DNA from: Candidatus Bipolaricaulota bacterium
GTDB taxonomy: Bacteria > Patescibacteriota > Patescibacteriia > UBA11705 > DATKZF01
Assembly: GCA_035528115.1 (NCBI GenBank)
Contig: DATKZF010000003.1
Span: forward strand, 487,089-551,088
DNA length: 64,000 nt
Reading direction: 5' to 3'
Part shown: in pieces, positions 17,145 to 62,217 of the stretch
How positions within the stretch are numbered: the first letter of the stretch is position 1
How the letters are laid out: every line of letters starts with the position of its first letter
Made by a program: the position numbers and the translations under genes
The notes under the pieces: model-generated
The model's database searches: none
Seen by the model: the letters and a program-made list of their open reading frames with translations, nothing else
What the model was told of the DNA's origin: nothing

Positions 17145-17762
17145 ATGCATTACGAACTAATACTTCAAAAAAAAGGATATCACTTCATCGCCGGCATTGA
17201 TGAAGCCGGACGAGGGGCCTGGGCGGGCCCCTTGTTTGTCGGCGCCGTGATTTTGCCGCTGGGCGAATTGAAAAAATTCAAAGGCGTCGGGGATTCGAAA
17301 AAATTGACCGCGGAAAAAAGAGAAATTTGCGCCAAAACAATAAAAAAATATTGCGTGGCCTGGGCGATCGGCAGGGTCGAGTCCGGTGAAATCGATTCAT
17401 TGGGACTTCAAAACGCTCATTTGCTGGCGGTCGAAAGAGCGGTATTGGGGCTGGGCATCATGCCCGATTATGTGTTGGTTGACCGCATCGCCAAAGTGAA
17501 ATTTCCCATGCCTTTTGAAAACGTGATTAAAGGCGATGATAAATTCATTTCCGTGGGCGCGGCTTCGATTATGGCCAAGGTGGAAAGAGACGCTGAAATG
17601 AGCGAGCTGGAAAATAAATATCCCAATTATCATTTTAAAGAGCATAAAGGTTATGGCACAGGAGAGCACATGGACGAAATAGCCAAATTCGGCTTGTGCG
17701 ACCTTCATCGACGCTTGTTTTCCCCGATTAAGGAAATAGATAAAAAAATGCAGTTGTTTTAA
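17145..17762 (+). CDS. rnhB: Ribonuclease HII
   Basis: IAGIDEAGRGAWAGPLFVGAV matches the RNase HII active-site region (DEAGRG). Confidence 0.9.
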   Translation: MHYELILQKKGYHFIAGIDEAGRGAWAGPLFVGAVILPLGELKKFKGVGDSKKLTAEKREICAKTIKKYCVAWAIGRVESGEIDSLGLQNAHLLAVERAVLGLGIMPDYVLVDRIAKVKFPMPFENVIKGDDKFISVGAASIMAKVERDAEMSELENKYPNYHFKEHKGYGTGEHMDEIAKFGLCDLHRRLFSPIKEIDKKMQLF

Positions 17763-17782
17763 TGATTTGCTGTTGCTTGGAC

Positions 17783-17811
17783 TTGACAAGAAACAAAACC
17801 GGTGTTAATAT
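17783..17811 (+). promoter_or_regulatory. Sigma-70 promoter TTGACA, 17-nt spacer, TAATAT, followed by a GGAGGTGG RBS at 17843-17850
   Basis: Read directly; it drives the GC-rich ORF that starts at 17855. Confidence 0.5.
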
Positions 17812-17854
17812 ATCGACGTCATTTCACATCTCACAATTTGCGTGGAGGTGGCAG

Positions 17855-18274
17855 ATGTCCGATGACAGAAAATTCGAGGAGGCTTTCCCGGGAAGCTATG
17901 GACACTCGCAGCTCGATGAGGAGATTCCGAGCCAAGGTTCGGATCCCGAGTCCATGCTGCTTCAGGGCGGCCGAGAGCTTCGCCTTGACATGATCGGTGA
18001 TGAACTGGTCAGAAGGCTGACGCCGCGGGAGGAAAAGATCCTGCGCATGCGGTTCGGCATCGGCGAGGACGATGAGTCTCCGCTGAAGGACAAGGACATG
18101 TCGGAGGAAACTCGACGGCGCGTGGAATTGATCGAGCAGAAGTCGTTGAGGAATCCCCGCCATCCCTGCCAGAAGAATCAAGCCGAAGCTCGTCGCCGAG
18201 TGCTTGAGCTTTTGGCGAAATCCCGGCGCGATCTCCGCGCAGTTGTCGACATCGAAGAAGAAGCCGTGGGCTAG
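17855..18274 (+). CDS. Small protein made of a sigma-70 (RpoD-type) region 3.2/4 fragment, GC-rich and foreign-looking
   Basis: LTPREEKILRMRFGIG...TRRRVELIEQKSLRNPRHP is near-identical in pattern to RpoD LTAREAKVLRMRFGI...TRERIRQIEAKALRKLRHP, but the HTH turn TLEEVGKQFDV is replaced by EDDESPLKDKDMSEE. GC is about 58% with G/C-ending codons. Confidence 0.5.
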   Translation: MSDDRKFEEAFPGSYGHSQLDEEIPSQGSDPESMLLQGGRELRLDMIGDELVRRLTPREEKILRMRFGIGEDDESPLKDKDMSEETRRRVELIEQKSLRNPRHPCQKNQAEARRRVLELLAKSRRDLRAVVDIEEEAVG

Positions 18275-30276: not shown

Positions 30277-32289
30277 ATGATCGATAAAAAATCGTACAAT
30301 CAAGAAGAAAAAAAAGACAAAGGCAAAGAAGCCGTTGAGTCGGCCGATAAATCGGGAAGATTCAGCAGAAAAGAAAAAAAACAGTCTAAAAAAAGGCATG
30401 GGTTCAGTTTTTTTTCCAAACCTTCGAAAGCCATTGAATCGATAGCCTCGATTTACAAGCAAACGGACGAATTGTTTAAAAATAATGCGCCGATTGACGG
30501 TGAGGTTAAGGAAGAAGAGCAAATCCTGGCGCAGATCATGGAAAAAAGAAAAATCAGAAGGAAAAGAATGATAATTTTTTCGGCATTGTGCGGATTGGCT
30601 ATTATCGCCGGAGCCAGCGTGTTCGGATTTTTCGTTTTCAACAAGCGCCAGCAATTTTCCGAAGATAAAATAAATATTGAAATTCTCGGTCCGTCCGAGG
30701 CGATTATCGGCCAGGAAATTTCATATCTGATTAATTATGAAAATAAAGGAAATATTGATATCGATGACGTCAATGTTTTTATCAAATTGCCCCAGGGTTT
30801 TGATTTGATCGAAAAAATACCTGAGACCGATGGCACCAATTGGCATTTTGACAAATTGAAAGTGGGGGAATCCGGGCAAATAAAATTAACGGGTAAGCTT
30901 ATTGATCGAGCTGATTCCGAACAAAAAATGGCCGTGACTTTGAGCTATCAGCCGGAGAATTTCAGCTCCGAATTTTCCACGGGTGAAAATTTTTACACCC
31001 AGCTTCTGCCCGCGGAAATAGACACTGAGGTTTCCAGTCCGGAAACGGCCGCGCCCGGGCAAAAAATCAATTTGGTTATTTCTTATCAAAACAATTCGGA
31101 GAACGATTACGATAAATTCATTTTGAAACTATCGGCGCCGGCTGATTTTCAAATGCTGTCCAGTCAGCCCCAGGCGACGAATAACGAATGGCTGATAGAA
31201 AACATCGGCGCCGAATCGGACAAGCAAGAAATATCGGTCGAGGGCAAATTCGGCGAAGACTTGAATTTGGCCGAAGTCGAAATTGAGCAAAAATTTTCTT
31301 TGCAGGTTTTGTATCCGGGCAAGCTCGATAATAAGTTTTTGCAAAAAGAAGAGGGATTTTCCATCAGGCTTTCGGATGAAGAAATTTTCACCTATTTGAT
31401 CATCAACGGCAAAACGGAAAACAGCAACACTTGTTTCGGCAATGATTTAACCGGCAGTATTATTTTCAAAAACACGGGCGATAAGTCATTTGAAAATTTG
31501 ACCGCGAAATTGATCATCGAGCAATCACCCGTGGACGTGCTGGATTGGCAAAATTCCAATTTCGCCGGCGGCGTTAAGGCGAATATCGAAAACGGCAAAG
31601 AAATAAAATGGAGCCTTTCCGGCTTGCAGGCCAACAGCGAAAAAGTCATTGATTTTAAAATCCCGGTGGCCAAGCTGAGCGCTTTGAGCGATTTTTCAAA
31701 TGACAGTCTTTCCGCGCAAAAGCTTAAATTCCATTCGACCCTGTCCTTTCCGGATGAAGCTCGAACAATCGACAGCTCAGCGCTCGAAATAGGTTTGAAC
31801 AGCGATTTGAAATTGGGCATCAAGGCTTTGTATTATGACGCCGAGGGCAATGCCTTGGGCTCAGGGCCTCTGCCGCCGCAAGCCAATAAGAAGACGGAAT
31901 ATGTGATTTATTGGGATATTTCAAACAATTTGCATGAAATAACGGACATAAAAGTCAAAACAAAATTGGCCGAGAAAGTCAGCTGGGTGGGCGAGCAAAA
32001 AATTGGCGTCGGACAAATGAATTTTAACGCGGACACAGGTGAAGTGGTTTGGGAAATAAACCGGTTGCCCAAAAATATCAATGAGTCCCACGCCAATTTC
32101 AGAATCGGCTTGCGACCGCTTTCGGAAGACATCAGCAAGCTGATGAAATTGACCGAGACGACCACCATTGAAGCCAAGGACGCGGTGACCGGGGAAACGA
32201 TCGTCATGTCGCTTAATCCGATCACCAGCAATTTGGAATTCGATGACAAGGGCAAGGAAAAGGGAGTGGTGATACAAGAAATAGAATAA
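30277..32289 (+). CDS. Membrane-anchored surface protein with DUF11-type conserved repeat domains
   Basis: Basic N-terminus, TM helix, and repeated segments resembling DUF11/TIGR01451 (GQEISYLINYENKGNIDIDDVNV..LPQGF; GQKINLVISYQNNSEND). Confidence 0.5.
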   Translation: MIDKKSYNQEEKKDKGKEAVESADKSGRFSRKEKKQSKKRHGFSFFSKPSKAIESIASIYKQTDELFKNNAPIDGEVKEEEQILAQIMEKRKIRRKRMIIFSALCGLAIIAGASVFGFFVFNKRQQFSEDKINIEILGPSEAIIGQEISYLINYENKGNIDIDDVNVFIKLPQGFDLIEKIPETDGTNWHFDKLKVGESGQIKLTGKLIDRADSEQKMAVTLSYQPENFSSEFSTGENFYTQLLPAEIDTEVSSPETAAPGQKINLVISYQNNSENDYDKFILKLSAPADFQMLSSQPQATNNEWLIENIGAESDKQEISVEGKFGEDLNLAEVEIEQKFSLQVLYPGKLDNKFLQKEEGFSIRLSDEEIFTYLIINGKTENSNTCFGNDLTGSIIFKNTGDKSFENLTAKLIIEQSPVDVLDWQNSNFAGGVKANIENGKEIKWSLSGLQANSEKVIDFKIPVAKLSALSDFSNDSLSAQKLKFHSTLSFPDEARTIDSSALEIGLNSDLKLGIKALYYDAEGNALGSGPLPPQANKKTEYVIYWDISNNLHEITDIKVKTKLAEKVSWVGEQKIGVGQMNFNADTGEVVWEINRLPKNINESHANFRIGLRPLSEDISKLMKLTETTTIEAKDAVTGETIVMSLNPITSNLEFDDKGKEKGVVIQEIE

Positions 32290-32326
32290 CGCAAAATAAA
32301 TTCCAAGTTCCAAATATCAAATGTAT

Positions 32327-32359
32327 TAAAATAGCGGAAAGCTTGTCTTTTCGCTATTT
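32327..32359 (+). terminator. ATAGCGGAAAG-cttgtc-TTTTCGCTAT hairpin plus T run (AGCGGAAAG family)
   Basis: Imperfect stem located after the 30277-32289 gene. Confidence 0.5.
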
Positions 32360-32591
32360 TATGATAATTGTTTTTTTACTTCCAATTTGGTTTGCCTGCG
32401 ATTGTATGTTTTTTTGCTGGCTATCTTTTTCGTCGGCCGATGCAAAACGCCGGATTTTTTGCGGGTTTTTCGGCGAAGGCTTTTGATTTTTTCTCCGGGA
32501 GAATCGTAAATTTTAACAATGATTTTCTTTTTCATAAAATTTTTTGTTTTGTTGAATTAATTATATCATGAATTTATTTTCGGCGCGCGGG

Positions 32592-32644
32592 CGTCCGGGG
32601 GCGGCCGCCCTCGGACGTAGAGACGCGCCATGGCGCGTCTCTAC
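32592..32644. repeat. Two consecutive GC-rich hairpins: CGTCCG..CGGACG and GTAGAGACGCGCC-atgg-CGCGTCTCTAC (AGAGACGCG family)
   Basis: The second hairpin is nearly identical to those at 21352 and 51584. Confidence 0.6.
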
Positions 32645-33752
32645 AACGCGCGTTCGCGCGTTCGTCCGCGCGCCAAATCAAAAAGCGGCCATGAAAGCCG
32701 CTTTTAGATTAGCATCAACCTGCCATTTTACCCGATCAAGATGCTGTTGCCAAAAAACTGGATAGTTGGAGAGAGATTTAAAGAACATCTATCTCGTTTT
32801 TGGCAAACAGTATGCTGACAGGGTAAATCGCTCGCGAATCCTACCCGAATTTAACTATACGATGTATGACTTATTACTTGTAACTTCAAATCGTTAATTA
32901 AATTCGGGTAGGCGGGAAAAACTAGTTTGTTTTTCCCACCGGCTTCACCACTTACGGTAGGTTACACCGCCTTGCTTTGCTGGCGAGGCTGACGAGGGCC
33001 GGACACACGTATGCCCGGGAGCGGTTATTAACGGATCTCTCCGTCACTCCAGAGAAAGGCTACACCCCAAGGATTACTCCCCGAAAGGTTCACCAGCCCG
33101 TTGGAGCCAACCGCTGCGCAAAGTCCCCCGGATGGACAATCAGCGCTGTCGCGCCTTCTTCACGTCGGGCGCCCATCACGGTCATACCCAACGCTGCCTC
33201 ATTATGAGCATCTCTACTCCATCTCCTTGTAGATTGCCCTTGCCATGGAACCGGTCTTCGAAATTAGTGAAGACCGTCCCCCAAGTTTTTTATCTTGTTA
33301 CACAACTCCTATGGCCGGCCGTTTTTCAAATAGGTCCGGCTTGTTCGAAGCGTTGCAAGGGGTGGGGACTCTTCAGGGAGAGATCCCCTGTGGCGGATGA
33401 GCGATGGACCCTTTTTGGCGTTGGAGCTGAAAGCTCCTGGGTCCTGCGGTCGCGTGTCGCGCGACGCTTCATCCGCCGTTTCCGGTCCGGCCATCCTGAT
33501 GGCCGGCTAGCCTCGTTCTGGGCGCACCCGGCTAGCTGGGCGCGTTCTTTATGAGCACTGATACTCTCCTTTCTCGGTGATAAAGAATGAGCGCGCGCTC
33601 CCTTAGCCTATTTGGCCGAAGGAGCCGCCGTACGCGCTCAGCCAGCCTGAGTCTCCAAGTTAATCTTCGAAAATCAGGTTGGCCGGAGACGTCCTAGGTG
33701 AGGTTGTCTCCGATGGGGGAAAGAACGAGGAGGGGTGGGGTGGGGGAAAGGG

Positions 33753-34100
33753 TTACTTCTTCTTGCTCTTCTTGCCCTTCTCCTTACGAGCCTGGGACTG
33801 CAGCCCGGTCTGGCCCGACTCGGAGCCCTTGCTCTGGAGTCGGATCTCGCGATCGTTGTCGGCCCGCGCCTTGCGCCGCGCCTCCTGGTCCGCCGGCCGT
33901 CCCTTGCGGACGCCGCCGGGGCGGTTGAATTCCATTTTTCGGCCCCCGCTCCAACTGCCCCAGGGGGAGCTGACGGAGGATCGTCGGTTGCACTCCTCGA
34001 TGCGCTTGAGCACGAGCGGTGGTGGCTCCACGGAGACGAGCACGCATTTCGTCTGGGTCGGGGTGGGATCGGATTCTTTCGTGATCGCAACCATGTTCAT
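33753..34100 (-). CDS. Hypothetical small basic protein (115 aa) with a lysine-rich C-terminus inside a GC-rich islet
   Basis: Strong AAGGAGGG RBS 5 nt upstream of ATG and a TTGACA -35-like element; the sequence is not low-complexity except for the KEKGKKSKKK tail. Confidence 0.35.
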   Translation of the reverse strand: MNMVAITKESDPTPTQTKCVLVSVEPPPLVLKRIEECNRRSSVSSPWGSWSGGRKMEFNRPGGVRKGRPADQEARRKARADNDREIRLQSKGSESGQTGLQSQARKEKGKKSKKK

Positions 34101-34939
34101 TCCCTCCTTGGGGTGGGGTGGTTGTGTGTCCCTGAAACTACGATGTAGATGAGCGTGCTAAAGAAAGATTTGAAGGGTCATATAAATTAATAATTACCCT
34201 TGTCTTTTTTAGCTTTCTCTCTCCTCTACATCCCGGTTTCAGCGACTCTTTAAGGAAAAAAATAGACAGAAAAGATTCTGCCAGATCGCGAATCACAGCT
34301 TCGCGATAGCCTTGAACGAAAATTATGCTTTGTTCAGGGCTTGGCTGACTCTCTCCCAAAAGTCCGCTTGGTTTTCAAAGTTTCATTGTGACTTGGTATT
34401 ATATCATAATTTAATGAATTTGTCAAGCGTGGACGTAAAAAGGATTCATATTTTATCTAAAATTACATAAATCAAGAAGGATTATTAAGAGATGGCTTGT
34501 TTCGTCTCGCGCATTTGGCGCTTCGACGACCCACTTTTTGACGCCAAAAAGTGGGCAACCTGCCTGCCGGCAGGCAGGAAAGCGCTGGGGGAAAATGATT
34601 CGTAAAGCGACAATTTAATGTTAACAATCTCGCGACGGCTCAGCATTTTCCCCCAGACCCCCGGTGCTATCCGCGCGTGATTCGTCGATATTAGGACTTT
34701 TGCCTTTTATCTGCCTCATTGTTTTACCAAGGTTCGATTTTAACCGGCCAAAGAGGCAGGTAGCCGGCTACCTGCTTTTGAGAAATTAAGGAACGCTGAG
34801 GAGACCCCTGACGAATGCAAGGGGACGACGAAGCGAACCGGACGTTAGTCCATAACCTGCCCCCCGACCTTTAAAATAAGCAATAAAAAGGGAGGGGGGA
34901 CAAGGGGGGAGGGTTAAAATTATGAGGTTTCATGGCATA

Positions 34940-34975
34940 AAAAAAGCCGCCCCATTCGGGGCGGCTTGAAATTGA
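34940..34975. terminator. Bidirectional hairpin AAGCCGCCCC-attc-GGGGCGGCTT flanked by A and T runs
   Basis: Lies directly 3' of the minus-strand sugar transferase gene. Confidence 0.65.
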
Positions 34976-34984
34976 CGTTTATTA

Positions 34985-36412
34985 TTAAATGGCCGATAAA
35001 CCTTTTAGCACCACCCATGGCGTTTTCAAGAAAATCCACAAATCAAGGCGATATGACCAATTTTCAATATAATAGATGTCCATTTTTGCTTCTTCGTCAA
35101 AGGGCAGATCCGATCGTCCGCTGATTTGAGCCAGACCCGTTAATCCGGGTTTTATATCCAAGGTTCGAGTTTGCTCCTGAGAATAATTGGCCACTTCTCG
35201 GGGCTGATGAGGACGCGGGCCGACCAGGCTCATGTTGCCGATCAGCACATTGAAAAATTGCGGCAATTCGTCAATGCTGAACTTTCTGATGAATTTGCCG
35301 ACCTTGGTCACTCGCGGATCTTTTTTGATTTTATACAACGCGCCCCGCGACGCCCGTTGTTCCTTGATCAATTTATTTTCATACTCAAGCGCCTTTTTTC
35401 CGGCCTTGGTATTTTCATCCGTGCTGAATTCATTGTACATGGATCTGAATTTGTAAACGAAAAATTTATTGCCGTATTGTCCGACCCTTTCATTTTTGTA
35501 AATTATCGGGCCGCGCGACGTGATTTTAATGGCCAGAGCTGTCAACAATAAAATGGGGGAAAGCAGTAGCAATAAAATGAATGAGAAAACAATGTCCGCG
35601 GTTCGCTTAATGATTTTTCTCCAGCCGTCGAGCGGAGTTTTTTTGATTTCAATCACGGGAATGCCTCCGATCATGTGGGATTCGATGTTCGTGGACCTGG
35701 CCTCAAAAGGGCCTGCCGCGTATTTGAAAACGATGTGATTGTATTTGGCGAAATTCAAAAGTTTGATGGAATCTTTTCTGGAAATGTTGGGATCGGATTG
35801 AATGATTTCGTCAATGAAATATTTTTTGTGCCATTCGACCAACTTGTCGAAGGCCGTCGAATCGATTTCTTTGATTTGTCCGATGATTTTGAGTCCGAGC
35901 GAAGATTCCTTGTTTATCGTGTCTTTGATCGTCTGGGTGTACGCGTTATAGCCTACCAGCACGACTTTGTTAGTGCCCCAGCCCGTTTTGTACAAATGAT
36001 TTTGAATCATTCTGATGATAAATCTGCCCAGCACGATATAGACAATGCTCAATATCCAGGCGGCCAGAACAATGAATCTGGATTCAAAGAGTTCTCGCAC
36101 GAAAAACATGTAAATGATAATGGCGGCCATGCCCGTGGAACAAGCCATGAAAATGCGCGCCAATTCATCGGTCAAGGTCGGTTTTTTGAAATTGTAAAGT
36201 CTGCTTATAAAGAAGAAAAGAATCCAGACGACGGAGACGACGAGCGCCGCGATAATGTATTTGTCAAAAGGCAAATCAAAAATTACCGGTCTTATCTCGG
36301 TAATTTCTTGCTTGAATCTTAAAAAATACGCGGTAATGGCGGCCAGCAACAATAAAATATAGTCTGTCGCCAACCTAATAAGGACGAAAATTAATTCGGA
36401 TTTTTTTATCAT
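34985..36412 (-). CDS. Polyprenyl-phosphate glycosyl-1-phosphate transferase (WbaP/CpsE-type bacterial sugar transferase)
   Basis: Four N-terminal TM helices; C-terminal catalytic domain with KFRSM and DELPQFFNVLIGNMSLVGPRP motifs. Confidence 0.85.
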   Translation of the reverse strand: MIKKSELIFVLIRLATDYILLLLAAITAYFLRFKQEITEIRPVIFDLPFDKYIIAALVVSVVWILFFFISRLYNFKKPTLTDELARIFMACSTGMAAIIIYMFFVRELFESRFIVLAAWILSIVYIVLGRFIIRMIQNHLYKTGWGTNKVVLVGYNAYTQTIKDTINKESSLGLKIIGQIKEIDSTAFDKLVEWHKKYFIDEIIQSDPNISRKDSIKLLNFAKYNHIVFKYAAGPFEARSTNIESHMIGGIPVIEIKKTPLDGWRKIIKRTADIVFSFILLLLLSPILLLTALAIKITSRGPIIYKNERVGQYGNKFFVYKFRSMYNEFSTDENTKAGKKALEYENKLIKEQRASRGALYKIKKDPRVTKVGKFIRKFSIDELPQFFNVLIGNMSLVGPRPHQPREVANYSQEQTRTLDIKPGLTGLAQISGRSDLPFDEEAKMDIYYIENWSYRLDLWIFLKTPWVVLKGLSAI

Positions 36413-37321
36413 AGCATGGGTTTTATTGGAAGATAAATGACTACTATCATTATGCCAGTTTTATCGGTGTCTGGCAATGTCATTTGGCTTCCAATGATCT
36501 AAATAAGCCTGTAAGCCGAATTCTGTGGCCTCCGCCAAGAATTCGAACGGCAGATTTTAGAACCTGTCGGCCGAAGCCTTGGCGAAGGTCGATGACCATC
36601 TATCTAGGTCCGACATTGCTGCCGGACTCAAGCGAGCTACCAAATTTGCTCTTGCACCTGATAGGGTTTACCACGCTTGGACGTTGCCGTCCAAGGAGAG
36701 AAGTATGATTTAAATGGTCACGTGAACAATTTAACTTTTTTTCTTCTCACTTTTCACCTTTGGCCGCGAAGCGGCCACCCTGAGTGAGGAGCAGTGCGAC
36801 GAATCGAAGGGTGTAGATGTATCCTTCGACTCGCTATGCTCGCTCAGGATAGTCGCTTCGCGACTAGTATAGTCTCTGTGGCACTGGCCGTCGGCCGAGT
36901 TTCTTTCGACCCTATCTCAGAAATAATTTTCTATTCAATTGGCGAATTTAGGCTGCAAATTGTTCAAAACTCGTCACCATAATAATCATATTATGCTTCT
37001 TCGTCTTTCACAATTTTCGCTCTAAATTCGCTCAATCTCATTACGAAACTTATGTCTGAGATAGGGTCTTGTTATCTCGGCATCGCCCGGACGTTATCCG
37101 GTATCATTTTTTATGGTGTTCGGACTTTCCTCCCTCCTTCGCTCCTTGCTGCGCTCGAGCTTCGAAGGGCAAGCCCTCTTAGTTTGCGAGGGGGGTTGCC
37201 GTTCTTGGCTTCAAACAAAGCAAGGAGCGAAGAAGAGCGGTCATCCGGCTTATTCAGATCAATGAAATTATAGCAAAAAAATGATGAAATGTCAATGGTA
37301 ATTTAAAAACCGCCAGCATGG

Positions 37322-38674
37322 CTAGCGGTTGAGGAAGTTACGAAAAGCGTCGGTCACGACCATCTGCTCGAGGCGCTCGCCACAAGTGATGATGCCAAGC
37401 TGCGCGTCCGGGAAGTGTGAGGTCGAGGAATTTGTGACTCCAAGCAGGAAGTCCTGCGCCTCGTCCGGCAGTTGACTGAAACTTCTGGCCGCGCCCGTCC
37501 CGCTTTTCCAGCCGTTGAAATTGACAACGTCGGGCTCGCACAGGTCCCAGTCAGCAATGCGAGCGGGCGGGTACGCGAAGCGCTCGCCGCGAAGTTGCCA
37601 GGTATCCACGACCGGGATTTTAGGTTGACTGTCGAGCACGTCCAGTTTCGTAAAGCACAGGAAGTTCGGCGCGCAGAGCCGAATTCCTTGTCGAAGGAGC
37701 GGGAGATTGAGCGGGCCGCAACGTCGAGGGCGTCCGGTGGTGACGCCGAATTCCGCGCCGCGTTGTCGCAGAGACTCTCCGGTGTCGGATTTGTCTTCGC
37801 CGGGAAAAGGCCCGCCGCCGACTCTGGTGGCGTAGAGCTTGGATACTCCGATCGTGAACGCGATGTCCATTATCGTCAATCCCGCTTGCGCGATCAGGCC
37901 GGCTGCGGTCGTTGATGACGAAGTGACGTACGGGTACGTCCCGAACAGCCGATCAAGCAGAGCTCCTTGGCCCGGTTCGATCAGGCCGATGTCGCCGTTG
38001 CGTTTGATTTCATCGATTACTCGTAAGGTGTCCGTGACGCGACCGCCCAGCTTTCGGACGGAGTCAATGACATTGTCCACTTCGCATTTTTCTTCGGGCC
38101 GGCCGCAGCCGCGCAAGATGGCGTTGGCGAGGTCGTACGCCAGCTTGAGCCTCTGTTCAGCTTTGTCGCCGCTCTCAAGCAGTTCAAAGAATGTCGGTCC
38201 GACCCGGAATGCCTGCATGGCGTAGGTCGGGCCGATGCCGCTGCCCGTGGTGCCGATACGGTCATTGCCCATGAGAATTTCGATGGCCGCTTCGACCGAA
38301 CGATAGATCGGCAAAACGACTTGAGCGCGACCGTCGATCAAGGTTGGCGAGACGTTGACTCCTTGGGCGCGCAGGTCCGTCATTTCTTTTTTCAGCGCGA
38401 CTGGGTCGATGACCATGCCAGCTGCCAAAATGGCCGTGATGTCGGGATCGAACACGGCCAGCGGCAGGTAATGGCTTTTTTGGAGTCGACCGAAGCTGTC
38501 TCTGTACGAATGGCCGGCATTGCCGCCGCCATTGGGCCGAATGGCCCATTTGATGCGCGGGTTGTGGCTCTGCTTCATCAGCTGAGCCAGACGCAGAGAG
38601 ACAGACCCTTTGCCGTTGTCTCCGAACGTCAAATCGGAGAGTAAAATGAACCTGCCGCGAAGATTAGGCATCAT
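37322..38674 (-). CDS. purA: Adenylosuccinate synthetase-family protein, divergent and GC-rich
   Basis: P-loop GDNGKGS (PurA GDEGKGK), GGGNAGHS (catalytic His), TTGSGIGPTY, YATRVGGGPFP, GVTTGRPRRCG, and the GTP-specificity motif TKLD. About 62% GC, in contrast to the AT-rich promoter TTGACT-17-TAAACT upstream. Confidence 0.8.
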   Translation of the reverse strand: MMPNLRGRFILLSDLTFGDNGKGSVSLRLAQLMKQSHNPRIKWAIRPNGGGNAGHSYRDSFGRLQKSHYLPLAVFDPDITAILAAGMVIDPVALKKEMTDLRAQGVNVSPTLIDGRAQVVLPIYRSVEAAIEILMGNDRIGTTGSGIGPTYAMQAFRVGPTFFELLESGDKAEQRLKLAYDLANAILRGCGRPEEKCEVDNVIDSVRKLGGRVTDTLRVIDEIKRNGDIGLIEPGQGALLDRLFGTYPYVTSSSTTAAGLIAQAGLTIMDIAFTIGVSKLYATRVGGGPFPGEDKSDTGESLRQRGAEFGVTTGRPRRCGPLNLPLLRQGIRLCAPNFLCFTKLDVLDSQPKIPVVDTWQLRGERFAYPPARIADWDLCEPDVVNFNGWKSGTGAARSFSQLPDEAQDFLLGVTNSSTSHFPDAQLGIITCGERLEQMVVTDAFRNFLNR

Positions 38675-38751
38675 GGCCTCTCTTTCTTTGTATGTCATTG
38701 CCCATGGAAAGTTTAGAAGCTTTGAGGAGAAAAGTCAATCATTGCGCAATT

Positions 38752-38784
38752 AAAAAACAAGCCCTATTTTAGGGCCTGTTTTTG
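38752..38784. terminator. Bidirectional hairpin GCCCT-atttt-AGGGC with flanking A and T runs
   Basis: Lies between the convergent 3' end of 38801-39403 and the promoter region of the purA-like gene. Confidence 0.45.
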
Positions 38785-38800
38785 ATATATTGAGCTTTTT

Positions 38801-39403
38801 TTACGCTTCCGGGTATTTGGTGATATCGATTATTTTGCCGTCGTCATCCATTAAGATAATGACTGTCGGCTCCATGTCAGTGTCATTGGGAAAGGCTTGA
38901 ACTTCCCACATGTAATGATAATCAAGTCCGTTATATCTCAGCAAAGAAACGATCACTATCGCGTCCGGGTTGGCCGCTTTGAAAGCGTCGATTTCGCTTT
39001 TAGCCAGATTATAGATGGCCGGGCTGTCGGTCTTTAAGGCTTCGCCGCCTTGCTGTTCATAAGAACATTCGCCTTGATCGGTCGAGCTGACGACCATTTC
39101 TTGCTTGACCGTCAGATATTTGATTTTGTTTTGCGATGGCGAGCAATAGTAGAAGAACCAAGCGTTGCTCGTGCCTTCTTCATTGAGCGGCGATTGAAAA
39201 GTCTTTTCCACGACCGCGTCGGACGCCCATTTTTTCGCTTCAAGGTCGGCGACTTTTTTGGCTTCCAAGATGGTCATCATGGTTTTTCCCGGAGTCACCA
39301 CTTCAGGTTGCGCTGTTTTGTTTACAACCGGAGTTTTTTCGGCGCAAGCCGCTCCCGAAAGAACCAGAGCCGCCATTGCTAAAACGAAAATTGCTTTTTT
39401 CAT
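38801..39403 (-). CDS. Secreted protein of unknown function (signal peptide, predicted AXA-type cleavage)
   Basis: N-terminal MKKAIFVLAMAALVLSGAACA signal peptide followed by a small acidic domain. Confidence 0.45.
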   Translation of the reverse strand: MKKAIFVLAMAALVLSGAACAEKTPVVNKTAQPEVVTPGKTMMTILEAKKVADLEAKKWASDAVVEKTFQSPLNEEGTSNAWFFYYCSPSQNKIKYLTVKQEMVVSSTDQGECSYEQQGGEALKTDSPAIYNLAKSEIDAFKAANPDAIVIVSLLRYNGLDYHYMWEVQAFPNDTDMEPTVIILMDDDGKIIDITKYPEA

Positions 39404-59013: not shown

Positions 59014-60003
59014 TTAGGCGGCAAAATCGAAAATTTGCTTTTCGATGTCCGCTCGAGGGATCAGGCCTTCCCCGGACTGATTGACCAGCCTTAGAATGGT
59101 CTGGTTGTCGAGTCCGTTACTTGCGAGAATCTCTTTCGCTTCCTTCCTGCTTAGGATACCTTGTCCGCGCAGACTGGACATGGCCTTGAGCAGAGTCTCT
59201 TTGTCTTCTCCCACGGCGGCCATGAAGGCGGATAGAATCCATTTGCTGGTTTGCTTGATGGAAAGCAGGGCGTCGCAAATTCTGTCCACGTTCCAGTTGT
59301 TTGCCAGCAATGAAACGACGATTCTGCCCGCAGTCCACTTGGCCGGTCCGAACAGCTGGCGATAGAGGTGCGAAGCGATATTGTAGTCGCTCCACTTGGC
59401 GCTCTCCAGGGCGCGGATTATTCTCGAATCTTTCCAGCCGGCCGCTTGCAGCGCTCGGAACGTTTGATCCGGACCGATTTTCGTGTCCCCGAACGCCTTG
59501 ACGATCCGCATGTCGCCCCAGCCGATGATCGAAAGGATGGAAACAATGATGTCAAAGGTGTCGAATTTCCAAATGTTGGCAACTAGCTCGTCGTCCGTCC
59601 AGACTCGCGACAAGGCTTTGCAGATCCGACGCAAGGCTTTTTTTCGCGTCTTGTCCGGCAATTTCGTGCCCGGCTTGTCCTCCGTGAAGCCGATCTGGTA
59701 GCACAGGAGAAAACTATCGTGCAGAAAATACAAGCCATTTGCGACCATAAGCAGTTCCACCAGGTATTTTTTCTCAATGGCGGAGTGCCGCAAGGCGCGC
59801 ACGATCTTGGCGTCGAACCAGCCGGCCGCGAAAAGGTCATTGACGATCTCGATGTTTCGCCTTTTCTCTTCAAGCGACCCCGGGGTTTTGGAAAAACCCA
59901 GGCCGGCGAGCAGGGTTTGATCGATTCTGGCGATATTTGCCGGGTGTTTTTTCGCCAGTCTGTCCGCTTCGCGCAGAGTTTTTTTCAGTATCGCCAAATC
60001 CAT
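59014..60003 (-). CDS. Repeat protein with 6 or more copies of a roughly 30-aa motif a-G-W-x-D-x-R-I-(V/I)-R-A-L; function unknown
   Basis: AAGWFDAKIVRALRHS, IIGWGDMRIVKAFGDT, AAGWKDSRIIRALESA, KWSDYNIASHLYRQL, KWTAGRIVVSLLAN, NWNVDRICDALLSI; AAAAAGGAGGGGGAC RBS before ATG. Confidence 0.45.
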   Translation of the reverse strand: MDLAILKKTLREADRLAKKHPANIARIDQTLLAGLGFSKTPGSLEEKRRNIEIVNDLFAAGWFDAKIVRALRHSAIEKKYLVELLMVANGLYFLHDSFLLCYQIGFTEDKPGTKLPDKTRKKALRRICKALSRVWTDDELVANIWKFDTFDIIVSILSIIGWGDMRIVKAFGDTKIGPDQTFRALQAAGWKDSRIIRALESAKWSDYNIASHLYRQLFGPAKWTAGRIVVSLLANNWNVDRICDALLSIKQTSKWILSAFMAAVGEDKETLLKAMSSLRGQGILSRKEAKEILASNGLDNQTILRLVNQSGEGLIPRADIEKQIFDFAA

Positions 60004-60078
60004 GTCCCCCTCCTTTTTGCCGTACAGATAAGTTAGCATGAATCCATAATTAAAAAAAGCCGGCTTGGTGAAGCTGGC

Positions 60079-61129: not shown

Positions 61130-61663
61130 TTACTCCTTCTTGCGGCCGGCGTCCTTTTCCGGAGCCTCTTCGAGAACCTTGATCTTGGTGATGGCCTCGA
61201 AGGCCGGCTCGAGCTGCTGGAGCAGGGTTGCCATCATTTCACGGCCCGTGCCCTGCATGCAGTACTCGGCCACCTTGGCCACGGTCTCGCAGTTGGGGAT
61301 GAACCCGTACTGCGTGGACAGGTAGTGCACCGCGCTGGCCACGAACAGCGGCTCGAGCATGTGGCCGAGCGCGGTGTCGAAGAACTTGGGGTAGGTGTCG
61401 CCCAAGGTGCGGCGCAAGATGCCAATCATCAAGTCGCACGCTTCTTCGGATCCGGCGATCTTGGCGCCGTGCTTGAGGTTGACTGTGACAGCATGGAGAG
61501 TCTGATTGGGCTTGTCGGTCATGCTGGACATGGTGGTTTCTCCTTGGGTGGTGGTTTGTTTATCGGTCTGCGGTATTTCGCCGAGCGCCTGGGCTGCGTC
61601 CTCTCCTGCAGCCTCGCCGAGCGCTTCGGCGATTCTTTTTTTGACATCCTTGACACTGCTCAT
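61130..61663 (-). CDS. Hypothetical protein (about 177 aa) with very GC-rich, G/C-ending codons; foreign-looking
   Basis: GGAAGGAG RBS. The ATG overlaps the upstream gene's stop (TAATG). Codons are dominated by ctg/gtg/gcc/aag/ttc/cac, unlike host genes. No recognisable domain. Confidence 0.4.
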   Translation of the reverse strand: MSSVKDVKKRIAEALGEAAGEDAAQALGEIPQTDKQTTTQGETTMSSMTDKPNQTLHAVTVNLKHGAKIAGSEEACDLMIGILRRTLGDTYPKFFDTALGHMLEPLFVASAVHYLSTQYGFIPNCETVAKVAEYCMQGTGREMMATLLQQLEPAFEAITKIKVLEEAPEKDAGRKKE

Positions 61664-62217
61664 TAATTTTCTCCTTCCGTTACCGCATCCTCTTTTTTTT
61701 CTTTCTTCTCCTCCTTCTTGGTTCCCTTCTCCTTGCCCCCATTCTTCCTGAGGGCTTTCTCTTTGTCTTGCCGCGAAAGAATGCTCTCCATGAGAGCATC
61801 GATGACGATTTGGACTGATAGCCATGAGTCGCATTGCCCCAGCTCACGAATGACATCATCGTCATCAATGACTGAAGTCTTGACGTGGTCTTTTAGCGAA
61901 TCTCCCAGAATAAGGTAGCATAAGTGGCAATGCGGGCAGATTTTGATGAAGTCGCCGGCAAACTTCATGATGATATAGTAGTGACTCCTGCACTCATAGC
62001 ATGGCTGAGCGGTGAAGAAATGGACAGCCTTGCTTGGGTTGCCGGCCGCGTTTTCGATTCGTCTTTTCAAAGCGCTAATGATGGCTTCTCCATTGATTTC
62101 CCACGGATTCTTGTGTGAAAAATAGTTAATAAGCTCTTTTCTTACGTTAATGTCCATGTCTTGAGCTCCTTTGTCTCCGCGGGTTTTTAAGTTATCAATG
62201 AACATGTAAGGAAGCAT
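61663..62217 (-). CDS. Hypothetical zinc-ribbon protein (CxxC...CxxC) with a K/E-rich C-terminal tail
   Basis: CYECRSHYYIIMKFAGDFIKICPHCH; the tail is KEKGTKKEEKKEKKED. A TATAAT lies immediately upstream of the ATG, so the transcript may be leaderless. Confidence 0.4.
   Translation of the reverse strand: MLPYMFIDNLKTRGDKGAQDMDINVRKELINYFSHKNPWEINGEAIISALKRRIENAAGNPSKAVHFFTAQPCYECRSHYYIIMKFAGDFIKICPHCHLCYLILGDSLKDHVKTSVIDDDDVIRELGQCDSWLSVQIVIDALMESILSRQDKEKALRKNGGKEKGTKKEEKKEKKEDAVTEGEN

Follow-up and report, generated by a model that had tools for sequence, protein, structure and literature searches.

Adenylosuccinate synthetases of the canonical kind (PurA; EC 6.3.4.4) are represented by structures from Escherichia coli (1CG0, 1CG1, and 1ADE), Bacillus anthracis (4M9D), and Helicobacter pylori (6ZXQ). 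Here, we describe a purA-like gene located on the minus strand of a 64,000-nucleotide stretch of contig DATKZF010000003.1 (GenBank assembly GCA_035528115.1, positions 487,089 to 551,088), which is referred to as a whole as the window. Its product has the fold of the canonical enzymes, matches the same Pfam family (PF00709), and shares with them Asp13, His41, Arg143 (supplied by the partner subunit), and the TKLD motif (residue numbers are those of E. coli PurA throughout). It differs from them in being ~35% identical, in having the P-loop GDNGKGS instead of GDEGKGK, and in carrying G222P/A223G before Q224, I230R/D231L, W309P, and S414T/P417E; its mean Kimura distance to other PurA proteins is 1.47, compared with 1.06 among the latter. 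We consider it probable (at about 0.68) that the gene, resident at this locus, specifies a functional GTP-dependent adenylosuccinate synthetase and belongs to a small PurA lineage that evolves fast and is restricted to a single group of Patescibacteria/CPR-like (candidate phyla radiation) bacteria, the enzymatic activity being predicted from the sequence and a structural model.

Two further groups of enzymes are relevant for comparison. The short archaeal PurA (Pyrococcus horikoshii, 5K7X and 2D7U; NCBIfam model NF003295) has its catalytic core in common with the window protein, but it is ~340 aa long and lacks two insertions, while the window protein has 449 aa. The query-based template modeling score (TMq) between the two was 0.66 to 0.69, and the NF003295 score was 146 against a cutoff of 368. 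The PurZ and PurZ0 enzymes (6FM1, 7ODX, and 7VF6) belong to the same superfamily and follow the same two-step chemistry, in which a 6-oxopurine nucleotide is phosphorylated and aspartate is then added. PurZ has the short archaeal-type architecture, uses deoxyguanosine monophosphate (dGMP) as a substrate, has a displaced equivalent of R303, and is phage borne together with datZ/mazZ (PMC12884076, PMC8342488). Asp13, which is 99% conserved in PurA, is replaced by Ser in 100% of phage PurZ and by Gly or Ser in the archaeal relatives (PMC12884076). The window protein, with its full length of 449 aa and with R303 and TKLD kept, shows none of the PurZ traits.

A full-length, divergent member of the PurA family

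An earlier model-made reading of the window, here called the original prediction, had reported a divergent, GC-rich PurA-family gene with the motifs GDNGKGS, GGGNAGHS, TTGSGIGPTY, GVTTGRPRRCG, and TKLD. The interval reported is filled by one long minus-strand open reading frame (ORF; 37322..38698, 458 aa), and all of these motifs were found in its translation. The true coding sequence (CDS) very probably starts at the 10th codon, an ATG at 38671, because the -10 box of the promoter described below ends a mere 11 nt before the first ATG, because, in the ATGATG pair, the second ATG follows AAAGAGAGG at a distance of 5 nt, and because MP..L.G(K/R)FI opens all the relatives at this point. The resulting CDS, supported by the ORF, family profiles, alignment, and structural model, spans 37322..38671 on the minus strand (449 aa plus stop; 59.3% GC [guanine-plus-cytosine content]) and encodes a divergent adenylosuccinate synthetase. 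This protein recurs with the same flanks on seven separately assembled contigs from several sources, and an assembly chimera is therefore excluded. What the window carries is an intact but divergent GC-rich copy of a PurA-family gene, already named adenylosuccinate synthetase in NCBI.

PF00709 matched the protein with 320 bits (cutoff, 27; E = 2.5e-95) over residues 24 to 423 and positions 6 to 397 of the 416 in the model; with such an E value over nearly the full model, the family match is far beyond chance. The divergence was borne out as well. The protein scored below the equivalog cutoffs for PurA. The closest solved structures were the Yersinia and E. coli PurA (E of ~1e-62). An AlphaFold model built on a 75-sequence alignment had a predicted local distance difference test score (pLDDT) of 90.4 and a predicted template modeling score (pTM) of 0.91 and was the one used, seven sequences of the clade described below having given a pLDDT of 44 on their own. 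In Foldseek, this model matched full-length PurA structures with TM scores of 0.83 to 0.94, and the best full-length PurA chains of bacteria (ligated E. coli structures among them), plants, and the mouse with query- and target-based values (TMq/TMt) of 0.88 to 0.90/0.91 to 0.94. The fold of the model and the length of 449 aa thus bear out the long, bacterial/eukaryotic form of PurA. A role in a defense system was rejected, as no PADLOC defense-system family matched the purA-like protein at an E value of ≤0.01.

A PurZ/PurZ0-type enzyme of the 2-aminoadenine (dZ) pathway, an identity the original prediction had considered and argued against, would share the superfamily with the window protein and could be suggested by its atypical P-loop. 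This identity is refuted by Asp13, the profile score, the fold, and the genomic context, and we regard it as scarcely credible. The NCBIfam PurZ model NF038379 gave 84 bits against a cutoff of 300. The PurZ/PurZ0 chains in the PDB were matched with E values of ~1e-8 to 1e-10, compared with the ~1e-62 found for PurA, and the TMq to PurZ/PurZ0 (7VF6, 6FKO, and 7ODX) was 0.60 to 0.64, with a root mean square deviation of 5 to 6 Å, compared with 0.88 to 0.90 to PurA. No datZ, mazZ, dutZ, or dpoZ gene was found in the 64-kb window, which represents a chromosomal housekeeping context (rpoB/C, ftsH, infB, leuS, trpS, rnj, uvrA, gmk, and others), and the best relatives of the purA-like protein in phage databases were 27 to 34% identical to it.

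A rare clade next to ordinary PurA

A search of 5.8 billion clusters formed at 90% identity returned one identical entry (named adenylosuccinate synthetase in NCBI, from a metagenome-assembled genome of "Candidatus Bipolaricaulota") and six relatives with 45 to 53% identity, below which the score fell steeply to ordinary PurA at ~35% identity (at most 36 to 40%). A profile search of 1.84 billion representatives at 50% identity added one more protein, P0121, with the bit scores running 874, 512, and then 300. In total, the clade consists of 8 clusters among ~15 billion proteins. An alignment scan of the GTDB species representatives located it in 1 of 185,579 (locus L013, identical to P0005), the two further matches of that scan being ordinary PurA proteins that merely share PNGGGNAGH; a search of the GTDB representative genomes with the window protein alone gave no match.

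The host genomes look like those of Patescibacteria/CPR, with DUF4012 proteins, proteins resembling type IV secretion system (T4SS) pilins, many GT4 glycosyltransferases, and small low-GC contigs. The public labels of L013 (CAYPKD010000005.1, "uncultured Gammaproteobacteria bacterium") and P0001 ("Candidatus Bipolaricaulota bacterium") look wrong, the gene content and the nearest PurA/PurB relatives of both pointing to Patescibacteria.

In a neighbor-joining (NJ) tree, which is distance based and open to long-branch effects, the clade had a bootstrap support of 100%, and its grouping with P0127 and P0125 had 82%. The original prediction had named a firm position inside ordinary bacterial PurA, combined with conserved substrate-contact residues and a canonical purB partner, as the sign of a routine, horizontally acquired housekeeping gene; the contact residues are indeed conserved (see below), but in the NJ tree the protein stands outside ordinary bacterial PurA. 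P0127 and P0125 are the only other sequences in the tree with E14N, and the P0127 group comprises 13 clusters, one of them named [quoted passage not shown] by NCBI. These sister sequences have GDNGKG, RPNGG, and K131-A132 ("KKAIG") in common with the clade and likewise come from small-genome hosts. Unlike the clade, they keep K18, W309 or A309, and S414/P417 (and, in P0125, D231), and they occupy other genomic positions; their identity to the window protein is only ~33% (locus L011). P0125 lies 20 nt downstream of guaB, the gene for IMP dehydrogenase (IMPDH), and 1.4 kb separate P0289, a sister-group gene, from purB, the gene for adenylosuccinate lyase (Lyase_1 plus ASL_C domains). The linkage of the sister groups to guaB and purB supports an ordinary function at the IMP branch point for the wider group. 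PurB itself is widespread in Patescibacteria, where it is 60 to 73% conserved.

Ligand contacts are kept in the clade despite unusual substitutions

In an alignment that combined the clade, E. coli PurA, and 143 representatives of diverse PurA proteins, D13, K16, N38, H41, G127, T128, T129, R143, Q224, T239, V273, T300, T301, R303, R305, K331, and D333 were invariant in all eight clade members, so the retention of the catalytic Asp/His pair and of TKLD stated in the original prediction (D13, the catalytic base; H41, the catalytic acid; K331; and D333) holds for the clade as a whole, as does that of K16, which acts on the transferred phosphate. In the H. pylori enzyme, IMP is contacted by Asp12, Asn37, Gly119, Thr121, Arg135', Thr230, Val264, and Arg294, and Lys15 acts on the beta-phosphate (PMC11571797); R303 touches the 2'-OH of IMP and the aspartate (PMC8342488). 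According to the alignment, the equivalents of all the H. pylori IMP contacts, of the beta-phosphate Lys, and of R303 are kept in the clade. Q224, a further IMP contact according to the E. coli literature, appears in neither of these two papers. In the aspartate-site motif TTGRPRR, all of T300, T301, R303, and R305 are invariant, the roles of T301 and R305 in that site being those given by the E. coli literature. In the guanine pocket, K331 and D333 of TKLD are invariant, which argues for GTP, and S414 is replaced throughout the clade by Thr, a conservative change and the only one at a ligand position.

The changes specific to the clade are G8D, E14N/Q, K18S/D, D21L, T42S, L43Y, R131S/N/K, A142F, R147T (in most members), G222P, A223G, I230R, D231I/L, W309P, S414T, and P417E. 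The alignment confirmed both of the substitutions singled out by the original prediction, that of the P-loop K18 and that of the IMP-loop R131 by Ser. Since R131 is only 69% conserved among the 143 diverse PurA proteins (K in 31 and S in 4), its replacement is less unusual than was then held. E14N, which had not been flagged, is the rarer change, with E present in 139 of the 143. Some of these replacements appear in combination elsewhere. Among 144 nonclade PurA proteins, all four without E14 were also without R131 (Fisher's test, P = 0.008, not corrected for phylogeny), and the loss of R/K147 accompanied that of D231 (P = 3e-4, not corrected for phylogeny). P0154, which lies outside the clade, has independently combined K18Q, I230R, D231I, and W309P. 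We read the substitutions as coupled changes in the second shell and at the subunit interface rather than as a switch of substrate. This reading leans on the placement of R147 and D231 at the interface of the dimer and on a role of E14 and R131 in stabilizing the ligated active site. The altered substrate specificity suggested by the original prediction is weakened by these observations: the contacts to IMP, aspartate, the guanine base, and the transferred phosphate are kept, and the odd substitutions occur sporadically, and in correlated pairs, in other PurA lineages.

The same data bear on the idea of a PurA paralogue with a new function, in which the chemistry would be kept and the kinetics, regulation, or specificity changed, for instance toward another 6-oxopurine nucleotide, another phosphoryl donor, or inhibitor resistance, the fast evolution then reflecting adaptation in an episymbiont living on host-derived nucleotides. 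Such a view would account for the clade-wide replacements G8D, E14N, D21L, T42S, L43Y, G222P, A223G, W309P, S414T, and P417E at positions otherwise 90 to 97% conserved, within or beside the P-loop, 40s loop, and Q224 loop. It would also agree with scores below all the equivalog cutoffs, with the wide score gap to other PurA proteins, and with a divergence faster than that of the neighboring genes. However, the residues touching the base, ribose, and 5'-phosphate of IMP, the aspartate, and the guanine are unchanged save for the conservative S414T; the sister groups with E14N adjoin guaB and purB, like ordinary enzymes of the IMP branch point; these substitutions turn up sporadically in PurA proteins that are otherwise ordinary; and no conserved accessory genes adjoin the purA-like gene. 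We therefore hold a new function to be rather unlikely. With an ordinary synthetase as the preferred reading, a change of near-invariant P-loop residues (E14 and K18) alongside unchanged ligand contacts would offer a natural experiment showing which of its conserved residues PurA can do without. The view of purine metabolism stays as it is unless the specificity of the enzyme proves to be altered.

A resident gene with its own promoter and terminator

Wherever flanks were available, the gene order was SBP-RNase J-tryptophanyl-tRNA synthetase (TrpRS)-(hypothetical)-purA-like-(RNase P RNA)-Bac_transf. Synteny was looked up for the window and for P0002, P0004, P0005, P0007, and P0121, leaving out P0003 and P0006. 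Upstream of the purA-like gene, a terminator-like hairpin (CAGGCCCTAAAATAGGGCTTG, followed by a T-run; 38750..38778, minus strand), read directly from the sequence and placed by the scan at 38761..38775, ends the preceding gene and insulates the purA-like unit; equivalent hairpins stand before the promoter in the relatives too. The sigma-70-type promoter (38710..38738, minus strand; 9 of 12 consensus matches) consists of the -35 box TTGACT (38738..38733), a 17-nt spacer, and the -10 box TAAACT (38715..38710), as the original prediction had it, and the 102 nt upstream of the CDS are AT rich (35% GC). All five relatives compared (L001, L004, L007, L008, and L012) carry TTGACC-17-TAAGAT/TAACAT at 38 to 49 nt before the ATG, and since the box is kept at the same place in them, the promoter is not a chance match. 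The Shine-Dalgarno (SD) region GAAAGAGAGG (38677..38686, minus strand) lies 5 nt before the ATG at 38671, and the relatives have the SD sequence GGAAAGGAGGG at the equivalent position. At the other end, the terminator scan gave an intrinsic-terminator-like hairpin (AACCGCTAGCCATGCTGGCGGTT, then TTTAAATT; 37308..37330, minus strand) that overlaps the stop codon, and a hairpin with a T-run directly 3' of the stop was present in all the relatives. With its own promoter, SD, and terminator, the purA-like unit appears to be monocistronic, and because this layout is common to the relatives, the promoter can be taken as the ancestral promoter of the locus.

The same slot across the clade and the same promoter argue that the purA-like gene is a long-standing, vertically placed resident and not a fresh insertion. 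The proposal that a foreign gene had become fused to a host promoter is consequently not supported: the clade shares the slot between TrpRS and RNase P RNA/Bac_transf as well as the promoter, SD, and terminator, and what is odd, in this genome alone, is the composition of the CDS.

The oddity of composition is nonetheless real. The CDS has a GC content of 59.3%, with 61, 46, and 70% at the first, second, and third codon positions (GC1, GC2, and GC3), compared with 45.4% for the window and 43 to 48% (GC3, 53 to 60%) for the neighboring genes. In 200-nt steps, GC rose from 0.46 to ~0.60 and then fell to 0.41, the jumps coinciding with the CDS edges; the excess is thus sharp edged, although the value of ~62% given in the original prediction was too high. 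In the relatives, the gene is 0 to 8 GC points above its flanks (none over its locus in L007 and 8 points in L012), and only in the window does the excess reach 14 points. Residence at the locus does not explain this, and, given how deeply these genomes have diverged, a GC3 of 70% cannot be a relic. Our leading guess is that an unsampled relative with a higher GC content supplied a homologue that replaced the resident allele. The locus, a single gene of deviant composition amid an ancestral promoter, terminator, and synteny, would then be useful for the study of in-place allele replacement.

A CDS with 59% GC, raised GC1, GC2, and GC3, and edges matching those of the gene would also be expected had a housekeeping purA been imported recently from an unrelated GC-rich bacterium and landed behind a host promoter, and several further GC-rich ORFs without a Pfam match in the window could point the same way. 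Yet the nearest relatives (45 to 53% identity versus at most 36 to 40% for ordinary PurA) are genes in the same slot of related low-GC genomes, the promoter and terminator are orthologous across those genomes, no mobile-element genes flank the purA-like gene, and the donor would need to come from the same rare clade. Import from an unrelated donor appears to be largely refuted by this synteny, and we judge it very unlikely.

Three other ORFs of the window, 17762..18274 (plus strand), 59014..60039 (minus strand), and 61130..61834 (minus strand), have a GC content of 53 to 57% and a GC3 of 66 to 69% and gave no Pfam match; that at 17762..18274 had a weak PADLOC match to MzaA (E = 1.4e-6). The genome may hold several GC-rich islands of common origin. 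A stretch at 33000..34100, 3 kb from the purA-like gene, has 51 to 71% GC in 200-nt steps (60% over 33001-34000), ORFs overlapping on both strands, and patchy homology to the syntenic region of the relatives. The sole ORF scanned there (33679-34152) had no Pfam match, and a relaxed-threshold Rfam search of 32250..35000 gave subthreshold matches only.

Divergence rate and predicted function

The prevailing view is that Patescibacteria have lost nucleotide biosynthesis. If the purA-like gene works as we propose, one narrow patescibacterial lineage at least has retained the enzyme of the IMP-to-AMP branch in a strongly remodeled form. The predicted enzyme would convert IMP, L-aspartate, and GTP to adenylosuccinate, GDP, and Pi and so, with adenylosuccinate lyase completing the step, would allow the interconversion of IMP to AMP in an otherwise nucleotide-scavenging organism. 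The gene would form a transcription unit by itself, starting at its conserved sigma-70-type promoter and ending at its own terminator, and in one genome the swap of the resident allele for the homologue of a GC-richer relative would have produced the GC excess of the CDS.

Several observations weigh against this proposal. All of the NCBIfam equivalog cutoffs for PurA were missed (NF002223, 304 versus 402; TIGR00184, 273 versus 395.6; NF010355, 232 versus 445). With E14 and K18 replaced (K or R at the latter position in 137 of the 143 other PurA proteins), the full GDEGKGK consensus is not matched, and the E14A replacement in E. coli is said to lower the activity ~100-fold. Of the 73 positions with a conservation of ≥90% among other PurA proteins, the window protein keeps 63; the 5th percentile of those proteins is 67, and their minimum is 60. 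The gene also diverges faster than its neighbors: between the window and L001, identity was 78% for RNase J and 74% for TrpRS but 52% for the PurA-like protein, and between L012 and L001, it was 85, 83, and 48%, respectively. This excess divergence could reflect relaxed constraint. The most divergent member, P0121 (L012, 5341..6741), has lost G40, P135, and D229. No purB (Lyase_1/ASL_C) was detected by Pfam among the 36 window ORFs scanned, nor by tblastn with approximate PurB queries of E. coli and B. subtilis in 288 kb covering the window and the loci of the relatives. For the allele replacement, finally, no GC-rich donor is known, and fast divergence is found also in L007, which has no GC excess, and in L012, with its 8 points. 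The 120 best patescibacterial PurB matches (down to ~59% identity) included none on a contig whose length agreed with those of the clade, a result that decides neither way.

The faster divergence was uneven within the clade. L007 showed 74 to 78% identity to the other genomes for Bac_transf and 45 to 52% for the PurA-like protein, while L004 and L001 were 82% identical for RNase J, 72% for TrpRS, and 72% for the PurA-like protein, so that the P0002-P0006 group evolves at an ordinary rate; close pairs in it are P0004/P0005, with 85% identity, and P0003/P0006, with 88%. In P0121, GANNSYHGG stands for GGGNSGHS (G40 to Y), P135 is replaced by Q and D229 by G, and ~12 residues are inserted before TKLD; this protein may be in decay or undergoing a functional shift.

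A gene under relaxed selection and en route to loss, dispensable in nucleotide-scavenging episymbionts and with marginal or no activity left, would be expected to look in part like this one. It diverges 2 to 3 times as much as the housekeeping genes flanking it and more than even the adjacent hypothetical protein (window versus L012, 42 versus 66% identity), P0121 has the losses and the insertion just described, and members of the clade are exceedingly few (8 clusters and 1 of 185,579 GTDB species representatives). Against such decay, however, the ORF is intact and full length in all eight clade members, and the seven-member clade alignment (window and P0002 to P0007) has more than 130 invariant columns, all the catalytic and contact residues included, at 45 to 53% identity to the window protein. 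In all the lineages, the strong SD is kept along with the promoter and the terminator, and drift would bring the composition closer to the genome mean instead of placing it 14 points off. On balance, decay seems to us decidedly unlikely.

The clade could also represent a functionally shifted PurA of host-dependent Patescibacteria, with the rebuilt surroundings of its P-loop and 40s loop (N14, S18, Y43, P222-G223, R230, and P309) affecting phosphoryl-donor use, regulation, or inhibitor sensitivity, and the gene could possibly be a hot spot of allele replacement. A hot spot, if real, would explain both the 2- to 3-fold excess divergence and the 14-point GC excess; we nevertheless consider this combination unlikely and continue to favor an ordinary, if fast-evolving, synthetase.

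Neighboring elements in the window

The purA-like gene is preceded by a gene for a hypothetical 200-aa protein (38801..39403, minus strand; detected as an ORF). The signal sequence of this protein, MKKAIFVLAMAALVLSGAAC, resembles that of lipoproteins, and neither Pfam nor PADLOC gave a match. The protein adjoins the purA-like gene in L004 (57% identity) and L012 (66% identity) and is absent in L001/L013. Directly downstream of the purA-like gene, the promoter scan gave a perfect TTGACA-17-(TG)TATAAT promoter (37295..37267, minus strand) standing before a class A RNase P RNA gene (36496..37181, minus strand; found by an RNA model match). The RNase P RNA is unusually expanded, with 686 nt against the 367 positions of the model, owing to insertions of ~186 nt (after model position ~93), ~110 nt (in the hairpin at model positions 136/137), 36 nt, and ~50 nt.

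Farther away, at ~32741..32825 of the window, an element of ~85 nt stands out from intergenic DNA that does not align around it, sharing 84 to 88% DNA identity with L001, L004, L007, L008, and L013. It gave no match to Rfam or tRNA models. The element forms a long stem, CACACTGTTGCCAA...TTGGCAAGCAGTGTG, with the invariant loop TTGGAGAGAG.TTTAAAGAACA, and may be an undescribed small RNA or a regulatory hairpin.

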